Source of the DNA: Moraxellaceae bacterium
GTDB lineage: Bacteria > Pseudomonadota > Gammaproteobacteria > Pseudomonadales > Moraxellaceae
DNA: 63,668 bases
Direction: 5' to 3'
Assembly: GCA_049655345.1 (NCBI GenBank)
Contig: JBASJP010000151.1
Span: 1 to 63,668 of the forward strand
Positions within the stretch are counted from its first letter, which is position 1; each line of letters starts with the position of its first letter. Position numbers and translations under genes: made by a program. Positions 47,401-53,844 of this stretch are shown one piece after another. The notes beneath the pieces are model-generated. The model saw only the letters and a list, made by a program, of their open reading frames with translations. It was not told the DNA's origin and made no database searches.

Positions 47401-48312
47401 ATGCAGCTTGTCATCGTCAGTGGCCGCTCCGGCTCAGGCAAAACCACCGCACTTCATGTCCTTGAGGACATGGGCTACTACTGCGTGGACAATCTGCCCC
47501 TGACCCTGTTGCCCGAACTGGCAGACACCCTGAAAAATCGCTCCGGCGGGGCAGTAACACATCTGGCGATAGGCGTGGATGCCCGCAACGTTCCCGGAGA
47601 TCTTGAATCTTTCCGGAATGTTCTTGACGAGATGACACAGCGCGATGTCACCTCCCGCAGCACGGTGACCATTTACCTGGATGCCCGTGATGATGTCTTG
47701 CTGGCACGCTTCAGTGCCACTCGCCGGCGCCATCCCTTGAGTTCGAAGTCCTGCTCGCTACAGGAGGCCATCGAACTTGAGAAACACCTGCTGGACCCCG
47801 TCAGCAGCGCCGCCACCCTTCGCATTGATACCAGCTCACTTAACGTGCACGAACTGCGTGAGCAGTTGCGTCATCGCCTGGAAGGTCATGCCGATACCGG
47901 CCTGACCGTGCTGTTTGAGTCATTTGCCTTCAAACAGGGTGTCCCGCTGGATGCCGATCTAGTATTTGATGTGCGCTGCCTGCCCAATCCCCACTGGCAT
48001 GCCAGCCTGCGTGCGAAGACCGGGCGGGATACCGAGGTGCGTGAATTCCTGAACGGTGATGCCCTTGTCGAAAGCCTGTATATGGACATCGCCGGCTTCC
48101 TGCTAAAGTGGCTGCCGGAGTTTCGTGAAAACGACCGCAGCTACGTCACGGTAGCCATTGGTTGTACCGGCGGCCAGCACCGCTCGGTTTACATGGTGGA
48201 GCGCATATCCGCCCGTTTTCGTGAAGAGTTTCCGCATGTACAGGTACGGCATCGCGACCTGCCTGCACAGGATGACCGTGCCCCCGCGACCAACCGGATC
48301 CAGGAACAATGA
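47401..48312 (+). CDS. rapZ: RNase adapter / nucleotide-binding protein RapZ
   Basis: ATG 47401. MQLVIVSGRSGSGKTTALHVLEDMGYYCVDNLP (Walker A) and C-terminal GCTGGQHRSV. Confidence 0.93.
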   Translation: MQLVIVSGRSGSGKTTALHVLEDMGYYCVDNLPLTLLPELADTLKNRSGGAVTHLAIGVDARNVPGDLESFRNVLDEMTQRDVTSRSTVTIYLDARDDVLLARFSATRRRHPLSSKSCSLQEAIELEKHLLDPVSSAATLRIDTSSLNVHELREQLRHRLEGHADTGLTVLFESFAFKQGVPLDADLVFDVRCLPNPHWHASLRAKTGRDTEVREFLNGDALVESLYMDIAGFLLKWLPEFRENDRSYVTVAIGCTGGQHRSVYMVERISARFREEFPHVQVRHRDLPAQDDRAPATNRIQEQ

Positions 48313-48578
48313 TCGAGACGGACATCGAAATCATCAACAAGCTTGGCCTGCATGCCCGTGCTGCCGCCAAACTGGTCAGCGTGACAGCCCAGTTCCAGTC
48401 GAGCATCCGGCTTGGGCGCGGCGAGCGCCTGATTGACGCCAAGAGCATCATGGCCCTGCTCATGCTGGGTGCCGGCAAGGGCAGCACCTTGCGGCTGGTG
48501 ATTGATGGTGTCGATGAGACTGTTGCACATGCGGCCGTGGTGGCACTGATCAACAACCGTTTCGACGAAGCCGAATAA
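48309..48578 (+). CDS. ptsO: HPr-like phosphocarrier NPr
   Basis: 89 aa. Active-site context NKLGLHARAAAKL; directly follows rapZ. Confidence 0.88.
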   Translation: MIETDIEIINKLGLHARAAAKLVSVTAQFQSSIRLGRGERLIDAKSIMALLMLGAGKGSTLRLVIDGVDETVAHAAVVALINNRFDEAE

Positions 48579-48757
48579 ACACGGCTTTGCGTATCACCCT
48601 CTGCGGCGAAGTCCCCGCCCACTTCCCTGTCAGAAAATACCTGCGCGCCAGGGCCATAAAGCTGTCGTATGCGGTCATCGCCATCCACCCTCCCCTGACG
48701 GAATAATCTCCTGCAACAGGCAGTCATGCGACAGCCCTTACTGGCAGGAGAGCATTG

Positions 48758-49540
48758 ATGAGCTATCAGGATAAAGTCGTTTTCGTGGCCGGCGGCACCA
48801 GCGGCATCAATCTGGGGATTGCCGAGGCCTTTGCCCGTGCAGGTGCCAGAGTAGCGGTACTGAGCCGCAAGGCGGACAAGGTTGAGGCTGCCATCACGCA
48901 CCTGCGTTCCCTGACCCCTGACGTACTGGGCTTCAGTGCCGATGTCCGTGATTACGATGCCGTTGCTGCCGCGCTGGCAGACACTGCTGCGCAGTGGGGG
49001 CCGATTGACGTGGTCATTTCCGGCGCGGCCGGCAATTTCATGGCGCCAGCCATCAACCTGTCGGCAAACGCATTCAAGAGCGTAGTGGATATCGACCTGC
49101 TCGGTACATTCAACGTCATGCGTGCCAGCTGGGAGCATCTGCGCAAACCGGGTGCGGCCGTCATCAACATCACAGCTGGCCAGAGCTGGCTGCCCACCCC
49201 CATGCAGATACACGTCTGTGCCGCGAAAGCCGGGGTGGACCAGATCACCCGGACACTGGCCATCGAGTGGGGACCTGCCGGGGTGCGAGTCAACTCGATT
49301 GCACCAGGCCCCATCAGCGGGACCGAGGGCATGGCACGACTGGCCCCCACGGAGGCATCGGAAAAAGCCTGGACCGACAGCGTGCCATTGAAGCGCTTCG
49401 GCACCAAAGCGGACATCAGCCGGGCAGCGCTCTGGCTTTGCTCGGATGACGCAAGCTACATCACTGGCGTGGTACTGCCGGTGGATGGCGGTTTCACATT
49501 GTGGGGGTCGGGTGCCATCGCGCATGCAACGCAGCAGTAG
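48758..49540 (+). CDS. Short-chain dehydrogenase/reductase (2,4-dienoyl-CoA-reductase-like subgroup)
   Basis: Cofactor motif AGGTSGINLGIA. GGAG RBS 7 nt before ATG 48758. NITA and VCAAKAG motifs resemble the DECR-like SDR branch; substrate unknown. Confidence 0.85.
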   Translation: MSYQDKVVFVAGGTSGINLGIAEAFARAGARVAVLSRKADKVEAAITHLRSLTPDVLGFSADVRDYDAVAAALADTAAQWGPIDVVISGAAGNFMAPAINLSANAFKSVVDIDLLGTFNVMRASWEHLRKPGAAVINITAGQSWLPTPMQIHVCAAKAGVDQITRTLAIEWGPAGVRVNSIAPGPISGTEGMARLAPTEASEKAWTDSVPLKRFGTKADISRAALWLCSDDASYITGVVLPVDGGFTLWGSGAIAHATQQ

Positions 49541-49584
49541 CGGGATGCCTCTGCTATCATGGGCTCCTTCCACTGGAGGCTCCC

Positions 49585-50160
49585 ATGTCCCGTCGCCACT
49601 CCCTGCATTCCGTGCATAACGAAATTGATGACTTTGAAGATGCTGGTCTCAGCAAGACCGAGCAGAAGAAAGCCATGGAGCGGCTGCAGGCACTTGGCGA
49701 GCGTCTGGGTGCCCTGAGCACGGCACGCCTGAAAAAGATGCCTATCTCGGAAACGTTGTTTGTGGCGCTGGAAGAACTGAAGCGCCTTAAGGCCCACGAA
49801 GCCGTGCGACGTCACAAGCAGTACATCGGCAAGCTGATGCGTGACGAGAACGAGGACGCCATTCTGGGTGTGCTGAATCCGCTCGCCAATCCCATGCTGA
49901 ACAAGCAGATGGACATGCTGGCCGAGCGCCTGCTGACGCAGGGTGATCCTGCTATCAATGATGCCGTGCGCCGCTATCCTGCCGCCGAACGCCACACGCT
50001 GCGCCAGCATGTGCGGGCCGCACTGAAGGAACAGCAGACGCTGGCAGAAATGCCTCCTGCCGCACCGGTAGCGGATGGTGAGACAGTCGCCGAACCGGAA
50101 CTGCCGGCCCGCCGGAAGCTGCTGACCTATCTGCGCGAAATCGCAGCACTCGTTGACTGA
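49585..50160 (+). CDS. yjgA: Ribosome-associated DUF615 protein YjgA (DarP)
   Basis: ATG 49585 (GGAGG RBS). SKTEQKKAMERLQALGERL...RRHKQYIGKLMR...LLTYLREIA aligns by eye with E. coli YjgA. Confidence 0.85.
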   Translation: MSRRHSLHSVHNEIDDFEDAGLSKTEQKKAMERLQALGERLGALSTARLKKMPISETLFVALEELKRLKAHEAVRRHKQYIGKLMRDENEDAILGVLNPLANPMLNKQMDMLAERLLTQGDPAINDAVRRYPAAERHTLRQHVRAALKEQQTLAEMPPAAPVADGETVAEPELPARRKLLTYLREIAALVD

Positions 50161-50174
50161 CGCAGTGGCCGCAA

Positions 50175-51224
50175 TCAGATTTTCATCTGCTCACTGAACA
50201 GGCCACTGCCACCTTCCTGTCCGAACCAGTCTCCGATTTCAACCTGAAACTCGCGTTTCTTGAGACCATTCCCCACCGCAAACAGGTAGGCGGTATCCGC
50301 CATTGCCGGCACCAGGCCGACCACCTCACGCCCAAGGCGACTAAGCGGATGCACCGGCATGGTCAACTGCAAGCCATCACCGCGAATGAACAACGCCTTG
50401 TTCTGACAACGCATGACAGCACGAAAACCTTCGCGTGAGACGGATCTTAGGGTGACCATGCCCTTGTTCTCGTCCCCCATCAGACCCATGTCGCGCAACT
50501 GCATGAACAATGGCTCATGAATGTCTGCATTGAAATAACCGGGGGCATCCCGACAGATGAACCCGCCAAAATCCAGACGCGCAGCCAGCATCAGAGCCTC
50601 TACATCACTGCGCGAGAGCGTGGCAAGAAATGCAAGGGTCCGCAGGCTATGCGAGCCAGGCTGTCGTACTTCATCAACCAGAACGCGCGCCCACAAGATC
50701 TGGAAGTCCTCGGCCACCGCACGTGCCGCCGATTCCTGCCAGCGCAACAACCAGTCCGCATCCACGGGGCGATCAGACAGGCTCTGCAGATCAATCGTCT
50801 CGGCCAGCAGGTCGGCACGCAAACCGATACGTCTGACGTTGAGCGTGCGACGCAAGGTCTGGATATCGGCATCCAGCCGCGCATCACGCAGTGCCTTGGC
50901 AGTACTGGGTACCCGCAGGATGTCGAGAGGATCATCCGGGGCCTGCTCGATCACGGAGCTGAAACGAATCGTCGAGATGTATTCGTCATCAGGCCTGTCA
51001 ACAATCTCACCCTGGATATTGAAGCGCTTGCGCCCCGCATGAAGATCATCAAGCTCGGCCAGCATGGCGGCAACAGCGGCCAATTCGCTCTCGCGCACCT
51101 TGTGCACATCCTTGCCACCCTGACGCAAACTCCACGGCGGCAACATGGCCGAGTCACCACCGCCAAACAGGGTATTCCAGAGCTTGTCAGCCAGCCGCTG
51201 TCGTAATGGCAGGTCACCGGTCAT
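50175..51224 (-). CDS. Hypothetical protein, DUF2806-like
   Basis: ATG 51224 lies 7 nt after the HMGR stop (TGAgacgtatATG); 349 aa. The central block DADWLLRWQESAARAVAEDFQILWARVLVDEVRQPGSHSLRTLAFLATLSRSDVEAL matches my recollection of the DUF2806 signature (DxxW...LWArILagEvxxPGsfSlRTL..L..Ls). No catalytic motif recognised. Confidence 0.65.
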   Translation of the reverse strand: MTGDLPLRQRLADKLWNTLFGGGDSAMLPPWSLRQGGKDVHKVRESELAAVAAMLAELDDLHAGRKRFNIQGEIVDRPDDEYISTIRFSSVIEQAPDDPLDILRVPSTAKALRDARLDADIQTLRRTLNVRRIGLRADLLAETIDLQSLSDRPVDADWLLRWQESAARAVAEDFQILWARVLVDEVRQPGSHSLRTLAFLATLSRSDVEALMLAARLDFGGFICRDAPGYFNADIHEPLFMQLRDMGLMGDENKGMVTLRSVSREGFRAVMRCQNKALFIRGDGLQLTMPVHPLSRLGREVVGLVPAMADTAYLFAVGNGLKKREFQVEIGDWFGQEGGSGLFSEQMKI

Positions 51225-51231
51225 ATACGTC

Positions 51232-52401
51232 TCACTTGCGATTACGCCCAAGCTTGTCGTGGCTGGACACCCACTGGTCAGCCACAATGGCGGAGGAAAG
51301 CGACAACTCGCCGCACAGCACAGTGGCGGCGACAATCTCGGCAAGTTTCCGGGCCTTACCATCGCCGTAGCAGCCCATCACTTCGAGGCACTCGCGCTGC
51401 GTAGGAAGACCCGTACCGCCGCCATAGGACGCCACAATCAGTGCGGGAATGGTTGCCGAAAAATAATAGTCACCGTTGGGCCTGAGTTCGCCATGCACAA
51501 ACCCGGCTGACGACTCCGCCACGTTTGCCACATCCTGGCCACAGGCAATGAACATGGCGGTAATGCCATTGGCAAAATGCGCCCCGTTGTTCACGGAGCC
51601 GGCCATCAGCGCGCCCATGTTGGACAGCTGGCGCTGCCGGAAGAGCGCCTCGCCCGAGGTATGCATGACATCGCGGATCAGTGCAGCCGGCAGGGTGATT
51701 TCGGCCACCACACGCTTGCCGCGCGTATGCAGGGCGTTCACGTGCGAGTGTTTCTTGTCGGTATCAAAGTTGGCGGCCAGCGAGAAGTGCTCAAGCCCGG
51801 CCGGTTTCTGCGCCAGAATCCACATGCAGGCTTCGCGCGTTGCCTTGGACACCATGTTCTGGCCGGCGGCATCGCCCGTGGTGTAACAGAAACGCAGCCA
51901 GCGCATCTTTCCCATGCTGTATTGTTCGATATGCCGCAGCTTTCCCGAGCGCGTAGTGGATTCTGCTGCCGCACGAATGGCCGGCAGGTTTGCATCCACC
52001 CAGACACCAAAGTCACGTGCATGGCGGGCATTCTCAAAAACAAACACCGGCGCGCGCTGCATGCTGTCGTCAATCACGGTGGCAATGACGCCACCTGCTT
52101 CGCGCGTGAGTCGCATGCCACGGTTGTAACTGGCCAGGAGGGTGCCTTCGGTTGTCGCCATCGGCACATAAAACTCGCCTGCCGCGTGCTCGCCATTAAC
52201 GAGTAGCGGGCCGGCAAAACCCATGGGGATCTGGGCAACGCCAGCAAAAGACTCGATATTTCCCGGCAATACGGCAGGATCAAATGAAAAGCTGCCGGTA
52301 TGGGCAAGGGCCGCACCGGTTTCATCGGAAACCACAGCGCGACGTGCGGCCGCCATGTCGCGGGTATAGTCGTTGTCTGTGTCGCGAGGAAGTTTTTTCA
52401 T
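51232..52401 (-). CDS. Class I (eukaryote/archaeal-type) HMG-CoA reductase, soluble catalytic domain
   Basis: Class I motifs NIESFAGVAQIPMGFAGPL, VPMATTEGTLLASYNRG, TGDAAGQNM, NFDTDKK, GRGKRVV-like TRGKRVVAE, ACGQDVANVAESS, GGGTGLPTQ, VLCGELSL and VSSH. Start set to ATG 52401 (389 aa); the ORF-track TTG at 52443 has no RBS. Confidence 0.88.
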   Translation of the reverse strand: MKKLPRDTDNDYTRDMAAARRAVVSDETGAALAHTGSFSFDPAVLPGNIESFAGVAQIPMGFAGPLLVNGEHAAGEFYVPMATTEGTLLASYNRGMRLTREAGGVIATVIDDSMQRAPVFVFENARHARDFGVWVDANLPAIRAAAESTTRSGKLRHIEQYSMGKMRWLRFCYTTGDAAGQNMVSKATREACMWILAQKPAGLEHFSLAANFDTDKKHSHVNALHTRGKRVVAEITLPAALIRDVMHTSGEALFRQRQLSNMGALMAGSVNNGAHFANGITAMFIACGQDVANVAESSAGFVHGELRPNGDYYFSATIPALIVASYGGGTGLPTQRECLEVMGCYGDGKARKLAEIVAATVLCGELSLSSAIVADQWVSSHDKLGRNRK

Positions 52402-52465
52402 TGTTTTTGTTGTTCTTGTGAGTCGTTTGCTGCTGCCTGCCAATGATGCCAGACACCCTGCCGAC

Positions 52466-52930
52466 TCATGTCAGCGGTGGCATGAACTCGGCCAGCTTGT
52501 CGGAAGTCTTGCGCAAATTGATCGAGAGCAGGGAGGCAACGCCCTTGAGGATCTTGATGCCGATTTCCGGATGCAGCTTGAGGATCATCTCGAAGCCCTT
52601 GCGCGTGAGAACGATCAGACTGGACGAGGTGCAGGCGCGGATGCTGGCAGAGCGGGTCAGCTTGTCAATCAGCGCCATCTCGCCAATGGAGCCCCCCTTG
52701 GCCAGCGTGGTGATGACAACCGGCTGGGCATTCTGGTTGAACTTGATGACGTCGAGCGCACCCGAGGCAACAAAGCAGACATAGTCGCCCTTCTCGCCCT
52801 CCTTGAAGACGAACTCGCCGGGCTCGATCTTGTTGAAGAACATGTACTTCTCAATGGTCTGCAGCTCCTGGGCATTCAGACCGGAAAAGATGGGAATCAG
52901 ACTCAGATGGTCCGACATACGATCGCTCAT
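52466..52930 (-). CDS. Stand-alone cyclic-nucleotide-binding (CAP-family) domain protein
   Basis: 154 aa. Beta-roll with the phosphate-binding cassette GGSIGEMALIDKLTRSASI and a GAGGAAG RBS. No DNA-binding or enzymatic domain follows. Confidence 0.85.
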   Translation of the reverse strand: MSDRMSDHLSLIPIFSGLNAQELQTIEKYMFFNKIEPGEFVFKEGEKGDYVCFVASGALDVIKFNQNAQPVVITTLAKGGSIGEMALIDKLTRSASIRACTSSSLIVLTRKGFEMILKLHPEIGIKILKGVASLLSINLRKTSDKLAEFMPPLT

Positions 52931-52991
52931 GGGACTTCCTCGGGAGACAGCAGGACCGGCCTGAAGCGGCGTCTTGTTCCTGTCACTGTCC

Positions 52992-53020
52992 TATTTAGCT
53001 GAAAGCGGCCCGGTTGTCAG
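52992..53020 (-). promoter_or_regulatory. Weak candidate sigma70 promoter for the cNMP-binding/HMGR/DUF2806 module
   Basis: Minus strand CTGACA, 17-nt spacer, TAAATA. The -35 element overlaps the nitrilase stop codon. Confidence 0.25.
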
Positions 53021-53844
53021 CGAATTAGTCGATGCTTTCGTACAGGCATGCGGTTTTGCAGGCTGACCTGTTCGTCGCGGTCCCAACGGGCCAGTACAAA
53101 ACCCGCTCCATCGGTCACCTGCTCCGCCAGCACCCGCCCCCAGGCATCAATGATCTGCGTATGCCCCCACGTCTGGCGCGACGGGTTATGCCGGCCGCCC
53201 TGCCCGGCACCAACCACCATGACCTGGTTCTCGATGGCACGGGCCCGCAACAGCACCTGCCAGTGCGCCTCCCCCGTGACAGCGGTAAACGCGGCCGGGA
53301 CGGTGACCAGCCCTGCCCCCATGCCCACCAGTGCACGGAACAGCTCGGGAAAGCGCAGGTCATAGCAAATCGTGAGCCCTATGCAGCCGAAGGGTGTCTC
53401 CACACACACCACCTCATCACCAGGCTCGAAGGTTGCCGACTCCCGGTAGGCTCCCTGTGAATCCGGCACATCCACATCAAAAAGGTGAATCTTGTCGTAA
53501 CGTGCCACACATTCGCCGGTGGCGCTGATGACGTGACAGGCAGTCCTGACCCGTCCGTCAGGCACCAGCGCGCCATCCGGACGACTGGCTGCCGGCAGGG
53601 TGCCCGCCACAATCCACAGGTCCAGCTCCCGTGCGAGGGCGGCAAGCCACGTCAGTATCGAGGGAAGTTGCCGGGCAACCTCGCGATACTGCGCCGCATC
53701 AAACACGGCAAAATTCTCCGGCAGTACTGCCAGACGCGCACCGGCAGCGGCAGCCTTCCGCAACTGCTGCTCAGCGGCATCAAGATTGGCCGCCAGCCCA
53801 GGCCCCGAACAGAGCTGTATGGCTGCAATCAGGACATGACTCAC
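53017..53844 (-). CDS. Carbon-nitrogen hydrolase (nitrilase superfamily)
   Basis: Glu-Lys-Cys triad contexts LPENF, YDKIHLFD and ICYDLRFPE. ATGA overlap with yhdP. Confidence 0.9.
   Translation of the reverse strand: MSHVLIAAIQLCSGPGLAANLDAAEQQLRKAAAAGARLAVLPENFAVFDAAQYREVARQLPSILTWLAALARELDLWIVAGTLPAASRPDGALVPDGRVRTACHVISATGECVARYDKIHLFDVDVPDSQGAYRESATFEPGDEVVCVETPFGCIGLTICYDLRFPELFRALVGMGAGLVTVPAAFTAVTGEAHWQVLLRARAIENQVMVVGAGQGGRHNPSRQTWGHTQIIDAWGRVLAEQVTDGAGFVLARWDRDEQVSLQNRMPVRKHRLIR

Follow-up and report, generated by a model that had tools for sequence, protein, structure and literature searches.

A DUF2806-family gene beside a class I HMGR gene in a Moraxellaceae bacterium: a probable single-origin juxtaposition and a candidate role in abortive infection

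Described DUF2806 proteins and their relation to the locus

Belisama is a single-gene DUF2806 cassette of the chromosomal integron of Vibrio cholerae N16961, which blocks phage, brings about unrecoverable culture lysis at high MOI and shows toxicity upon over-expression; its homologues occur in 70 genera of Pseudomonadota, and its authors see homology to Abi-alpha (bioRxiv 10.1101/2024.07.02.601686). Abi-alpha (EF2833), encoded by prophage 6 of Enterococcus faecalis V583, causes the premature lysis of infected cells, and its authors pointed out a similarity to PF10987 (DUF2806) and to PDB entry 3H35 (ABO_0056) (PMC6356687). It is soluble, about 270 aa long and devoid of a catalytic motif, and it belongs to the Pfam family Abi_alpha (PF14337, formerly DUF4393). 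An ORF annotated as DUF2806 is also present on IncX4 conjugative plasmids, and it is the gene found disrupted by the mcr-1.1-pap2 cassette (PMC8221240).

We analyzed a window of 63,668 nt from a Moraxellaceae bacterium (contig JBASJP010000151.1 of assembly GCA_049655345.1, genome G000 below), in which a gene for a 349-aa DUF2806-family protein, hereafter P0001, follows a gene for a class I HMG-CoA reductase (HMGR). Like Belisama, P0001 carries a DUF2806 domain, a likeness drawn from the domain and the published description, the family assignment of Belisama being that of the preprint; also like Belisama, it has no conserved partner, as its gene stands alone in one lineage of the same genus (lineage B, see below) and in distant relatives. 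However, Belisama resides in an integron cassette, whereas the P0001 gene is chromosomal, lies at conserved positions, is vertically inherited across the genus, and is here probably located within the HMGR transcription unit. No integron-like repeats were seen at a pair of short DUF2806 loci in genome G225. The IncX4 ORF, in turn, is plasmid-borne and aligns to residues 125-331 of P0001 with 24.5% identity, leaving the N-terminal part uncovered.

P0001 begins with a helical part of some 145 residues that Abi-alpha lacks, and PF14337 neither matched P0001 at E≤10 nor found anything in G000. Clusters of Abi_alpha are the nearest named clusters outside DUF2806 by language-model features (score 0.82), which we take as a lead only. 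An hhalign comparison of the Abi_alpha and DUF2806 alignments gave a probability of 1.2%. Both hhalign and VIA-align superpose the two families at their C-terminal LGL...(L)T/SxxG region; an alignment of 10 Abi_alpha sequences finds 3H35 at 1.6e-23.

The gene, its junctions and the encoded protein

The ORF of P0001 comprises 349 codons and a stop, its ATG (51224-51222) being separated by 7 nt from the TGA of HMGR (51234-51232), just as the original prediction had described (Table 1). Although a mechanically called ORF extends further upstream to an ATG at 51362 and would encode 395 aa, the homologues, at 347-352 aa, start to align at residues 1-9, which identifies the 349-aa start as the right one. 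The HMGR stop lies inside a Shine-Dalgarno-like TGAGG in G020, G017 and G014, and in a weak TGAGA in G000, G004 and G009; owing to this stop/SD overlap, seen in six genomes when the remnant in G014 is included, the geometry of the junction suits translational coupling, as had been proposed. On the other side, the stops of darP and of the DUF2806 gene are 14 nt apart, so that no terminator fits between them. A consensus scan of 49900-53200 returned no promoter-like sites, including between the cNMP-binding, HMGR and DUF2806 genes, and terminator-like sites only as often as expected from shuffled sequence, with none between the DUF2806 gene and darP.

The GC content of the DUF2806 gene (0.583) is close to that of the window (0.584), and its dN/dS of 0.05-0.19 over seven orthologues resembles that of the neighboring core genes darP and CN-hydrolase; these values indicate that the ORF is a real gene under purifying selection. 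In the same part of the window, the plus-strand ORF at 52373-53002 matches no family and was discarded as the antisense of the real cNMP-binding gene. A mechanically called ORF of 475 aa (48146-49573, minus strand) overlaps rapZ and darP; it is probably spurious, since it has no family match above cutoff and only its C-terminal third is conserved in relatives whose divergence still lets the real neighbors align end to end.

Table 1. Features of the DUF2806 locus, with positions counted in the window
Feature	Position	Strand	Basis
DUF2806-family protein gene (P0001, 349 aa)	50175..51224	-	ORF and translation, PF10987, homologues, dN/dS
N-terminal helical part (about residues 1-145)	50790..51224	-	AlphaFold2 model; conserved across the full-length family
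Trp-rich helical core (residues 145-217) with the Pfam DUF2806 match	50574..50792	-	Pfam and conservation
C-terminal alpha/beta part (residues 222-349)	50178..50561	-	Model
HMGR stop TGA (51234-51232) and 7-nt spacer	51225..51234	-	Sequence; junctions compared in eight genomes
Class I HMGR, upstream neighbor, from the conserved ATG	51232..52401	-	PF00368, TIGR00533, synteny
Stand-alone cNMP-binding protein (154 aa)	52466..52930	-	PF00027 at 4.7e-19
darP/yjgA, convergent	49501..50160	+	PF04751 at 3e-35, NF003593

P0001 matches PF10987 with an E-value of 1.6e-14 and 54.8 bits against a cutoff of 24.5, a result with which the genome search agrees. The match spans residues 145-217, that is, the central stretch in which the DUF2806 signature had originally been recognized and quoted, and takes up only positions 30-101 of the 221-position profile. 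An exhaustive search retrieved homologues from 3060 cluster representatives at E≤1e-3 and from 599 at E≤1e-10, mostly of 330-360 aa and aligned end to end, with most of the top 150 covering approximately residues 9-340; PF10987 matches 90 of the 91 full-length aligned homologues. This end-to-end alignment indicates a single conserved architecture that includes the N- and C-terminal parts, the Pfam model capturing its core. When searched against Pfam, neither the N-terminal part (1-150) nor the C-terminal part alone matched any family, no helix-turn-helix Pfam family was detected in P0001, and no longer or fused forms of the family were found, the latter being weak evidence. TIGR03899, a hypothetical equivalog, shares the core region with P0001 (residues 147-215 on model positions 51-119), but its 50.8 bits are far under the curated cutoff of 155.65, so P0001 is not a member. 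The matches to PF10987 and to the full-length homologues place P0001 in the DUF2806 family.

The AlphaFold2 model of P0001 (pLDDT 92.3, pTM 0.88) is helical in its N-terminal part and in its Trp-rich core, and ends in an alpha/beta part at 222-348, the separate C-terminal module that had been anticipated; the C-terminal half modeled on its own reaches a pLDDT of 95.4. The N-terminal part forms a long helical hairpin (H40-62 and H108-143) around a lower-confidence insert (63-107). Of its earlier description as acidic and helical, the helical character is borne out by the model and the acidity was overstated, the net charge of residues 1-150 being -3. With a maximum 19-residue Kyte-Doolittle mean of 1.31, the protein has no membrane segment and agrees with its earlier description as soluble.

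Positions conserved in the family are W16, P30, G64, W158, W162, W178, E185, P189, G190, S193, G247 and G298, among which W158 in the core is invariant and W162, W178, E185, P189, G190 and S193 are nearly so. They contain no catalytic signature, in line with the original reading of the sequence; as they are mostly Trp, Gly, Pro and hydrophobic residues, P0001 probably acts by binding or disturbing another component. Foldseek searches of the PDB with the full and the C-terminal models gave no match at E≤0.001, and a PDB sequence search with the family profile gave none under E 0.1. Residues 203-307 recurrently but weakly resemble winged-helix domains, and the C-terminal part together with helix 205-217 weakly resembles winged-helix domains and PDB 3H35, all of these structural matches being below the tool's noise mark. 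In the ESM Atlas only a DUF2806 cluster was recovered (TM 0.71 over 308 residues), and in BFVD one phage protein of 229 aa with a common fold (E 8.8e-10, TM 0.68 by target); tblastn against phage genomes gave no match.

Linkage to HMGR within and beyond the genus

The upstream gene was confirmed to encode a class I HMGR (PF00368 at 4e-122), which scores 348 bits with TIGR00533 (NADPH type) and 29 bits with TIGR00532 (degradative type). This HMGR looks like an orphan: searches of G000 and five near-complete relatives found no HMG-CoA synthase (PF01154), and that of G000 no mevalonate kinase. IspH of the MEP pathway is present in 5 of the 5 genomes tested. Dxr (PF02670) was not found in G000 though IspH is present, which may reflect the 92.7% completeness of the assembly or a Dxr-like substitute. 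Several relatives have a second HMGR-like region, about 40-42% identical, inside open frames of approximately 850-990 aa (G004:C13:433627-434823, G019:C39:10019-11188, G020:C2:35593-36765, G024:C11:30421-31569 and others), which suggests a fused HMGR; none was found in G000.

The original prediction took the tight translational coupling to imply stoichiometric co-production with the class I HMGR, as would be expected if the protein were its partner, regulator or effector. In favor of this are the 7-nt spacing with stop/SD-like overlap in G000, G004, G009, G020 and G017, with a remnant in G014, and the apparent orphan state of the HMGR, for which neither HMG-CoA synthase nor mevalonate kinase was found, so that an unusual partner is conceivable. 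A complex prediction for HMGR and P0001 scored 0.03 against a mark of 0.32, which speaks neither for nor against binding. We searched 40 relatives, 20 of them in the same genus, with both proteins (the unpublished genome G015 enters only the genus tallies, and no conclusion depends on it). Within the genus, the DUF2806 ORF is present in 18 of the 20 genomes and an HMGR match in 19; since the match in G010 is partial and of the second type only, 16 relatives were counted as having both the ORF and an orthologous HMGR. The two genes are adjacent in only six of these 16 (seven genomes with G000) and unlinked in the other 10.

The seven genomes with the adjacency (G000, G004, G009, G020, G017, G013 and G019) make up lineage A, where the order is yhdP, CN-hydrolase, cNMP, HMGR and DUF2806, followed by the convergent darP and rapZ. 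The lineage B genomes (G011, G016 and G006) have yhdP, CN-hydrolase, cNMP, HMGR and then the convergent darP and rapZ at this locus, without the DUF2806 gene. Their copy is a solitary gene at another site, with pgaB transcribed away from it and an enoyl-CoA hydratase gene towards it. G007 has an HMGR locus of the lineage B type and no DUF2806 match anywhere in its genome. The lineage B interval between the GST and enoyl-CoA hydratase genes (L032:2900-9050) contains pgaBCD and the DUF2806 gene, and the same interval in G000 (C239, L056:3560-7880) contains genes for DUF1523, a glucose/sorbosone dehydrogenase, GNAT and a DyP peroxidase; as its genes differ, this interval is a variable spot. The cNMP-binding gene is the neighbor that stays with HMGR in both lineages (window 51232-52930; L046-L049, L054, L055).

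In a maximum-likelihood tree of the proteins, the HMGR-adjacent copies and that of G014 form one group (support 90/88) and the non-adjacent copies another (95/94), so that a single relocation explains the adjacency. The spacer is about 130-160 nt in the basal lineage A members G013 and G019, and 7-16 nt in the inner group only, which indicates that the tight spacing is younger than the adjacency itself. Nested in the inner group is G014, where the cNMP gene directly precedes the DUF2806 gene. Of HMGR, only some 60 degenerate nt of the 3' end are left there, immediately before the DUF2806 ATG and with AATCGCAAGTGA among them (L015:9085-9276). No HMGR was found elsewhere in this 82%-complete assembly, and the DUF2806 gene is intact with a dN/dS of 0.049; the remnant and this ratio indicate that G014 deleted HMGR and retained the DUF2806 gene under purifying selection. 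The converse case, HMGR with no DUF2806 gene found, is seen in six genomes: G007, G018, the sister genera G021, G022 and G024, and G028.

Beyond the genus, the family profile was found in 10 and PF00368 in 99 of 400 genomes sampled evenly across the class (the unpublished genome G181 enters only the PF00368 count, and no conclusion depends on it). PF00368, which covers both HMGR classes, is thus commoner than expected in this sample, and many of its carriers have genomes of 1.5-2.5 Mb. Three of the seven strong carriers of the family other than G000 have PF00368, compared with 98 of 399 genomes overall, and their HMGR is always on another contig; by our own binomial estimate (P about 0.2) there is no enrichment, and the co-occurrence that had been looked for with the partner idea was not borne out. 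A scan with a back-translated motif yielded 36 loci from species genomes and two from viral contigs, all 38 confirmed as family members, in Alpha-, Beta- and Gammaproteobacteria, Acidobacteriota, Nitrospirales, Spirochaetaceae, Binatia and Hymenobacter. HMGR is adjacent in only six of the 38, which come from MAGs titled Moraxellaceae or Gammaproteobacteria matching lineage A genomes; outside this group the adjacency was seen in 0 of 30 loci across several phyla, and no neighbor gene recurs across the loci examined. The original prediction had been staked on a DUF2806 match and on conserved linkage to HMGR in other genomes: the match was found, and conserved linkage essentially was not. Adjacency is thus a single event in one sub-lineage and occurs in no other taxon examined; with the 10 unlinked relatives, the loss of HMGR in G014, the six HMGR genomes where no DUF2806 gene was found and the cNMP-binding gene as the one that stays with HMGR, synteny already disfavors an HMGR partnership. 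We regard such a partnership as very unlikely, and consider it highly probable that P0001 is independent of HMGR.

A separate possibility is that the DUF2806 gene was recruited, in this sub-lineage, into a cNMP-HMGR-DUF2806 operon controlled by cyclic nucleotides; its protein would then be expressed or activated together with this module despite a separate evolutionary history. The three genes are on the same strand with short gaps and, as far as consensus matches can tell, no promoter-like or convincing terminator-like site between them, and the loss of HMGR in G014 has left the cNMP gene immediately ahead of the DUF2806 gene. However, lineage B has the cNMP-HMGR pair without DUF2806, and we give this recruitment hardly any chance.

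Taken together, the comparison indicates that the DUF2806 gene moved next to HMGR in a single event and that compaction later drew it into the HMGR transcription unit. The ancestor of the genus had the cNMP-binding gene, HMGR and then the convergent darP. The DUF2806 gene was placed in the gap between HMGR and darP in the forerunner of one sub-lineage, and the spacer then shrank from about 130-160 nt to 7-16 nt. In this genome the gene is probably read from the HMGR transcript and re-initiated at the stop/SD overlap, its co-expression with HMGR being presumably a by-product of compaction. On the other hand, as the stop/SD overlap has been kept in six genomes, being co-expressed with HMGR may not be a pure accident but something the cell tolerates or even profits from.

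Candidate roles of the DUF2806 protein and their meaning

Our leading, though tentative, reading, which we hold at slightly under even chances, is that P0001 is an anti-phage protein, namely, a stand-alone abortive-infection protein of the Belisama/Abi-alpha type. By analogy with the family, it would be harmless in uninfected cells and, upon a phage cue, would bring about early lysis or growth arrest. The contexts of some homologues are of interest in this respect. On a Paraburkholderia plasmid a homologue lies directly upstream of an annotated restriction endonuclease gene; a full-length homologue in Paraburkholderia fungorum has genes for a serine recombinase and a SIR2_2 protein as its neighbors; that of Pseudomonas endophytica adjoins a Peptidase_S24 repressor-like gene on a contig that is also in IMG/VR; and one in a Spirochaetaceae MAG adjoins an RloB-like gene. 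Other distant homologues lie among housekeeping genes, for example aspS/ruvABC, glmM and clpB.

Several observations go against a defence role. PADLOC and PHROGs gave no match to P0001. In this genus the DUF2806 gene has core genes, and no defence or mobile gene, as its neighbors and its GC is host-like, and many distant homologues likewise sit among housekeeping genes. Moreover, presence in 18 of 20 relatives at two stable chromosomal positions, with a core-like rate and host-like GC, is unusually stable for a defence gene.

Alternatively, P0001 may be a cellular protein that is conserved in its lineage and has nothing to do with phage, possibly a regulator that binds nucleic acid or protein through its winged-helix-like C-terminal half; in that case the function of the long subfamily of about 345 aa would not be that of the short mobile DUF2806 and Abi genes. 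Near-universal presence in the genus, stable loci, dN/dS of 0.05-0.19 and host-like GC all fit this reading, as do the many homologues whose genes stand singly amid housekeeping genes, aspS/ruvABC, glmM and clpB among them. Nevertheless, the family is large but patchy, with members in several phyla and in only 10 of the 400 class genomes, and it shifts position within the genus; homologues occur elsewhere on plasmids and beside defence or mobile genes; and the structural matches stay below the noise mark with no helix-turn-helix Pfam family to back them. We give a cellular role roughly one chance in three. A bolder version, which we consider improbable, holds that the subfamily of about 345 aa, marked by its N-terminal helical hairpin, is in this genus a domesticated cellular factor, not a defence protein, that has been wired into the cNMP-binding/orphan-HMGR operon in one sub-lineage.

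These results bear first on how such loci are read. Two genes that lie 7 nt apart with a stop/SD overlap seem strongly marked as a functional pair, yet here the comparison of genomes shows a recent juxtaposition of single origin, and one relative has already broken the HMGR-DUF2806 pair and retained the downstream gene. They also extend what is known of the family: conservation in a large family extends over the entire 349-aa architecture, beyond the Pfam core of 70 residues, for which there is a confident model but no solved homologue, and DUF2806 includes stably inherited chromosomal members in addition to mobile ones. If P0001 were a domesticated factor, its output would be tied to the role of the orphan HMGR in a bacterium that uses the MEP pathway, offering a first physiological handle on this DUF family and on orphan class I HMGRs in Gammaproteobacteria. 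Should the defence reading be wrong, DUF2806 would have a second, cellular function; if it is right, this would be an abortive-infection gene fixed throughout a genus, which is uncommon.
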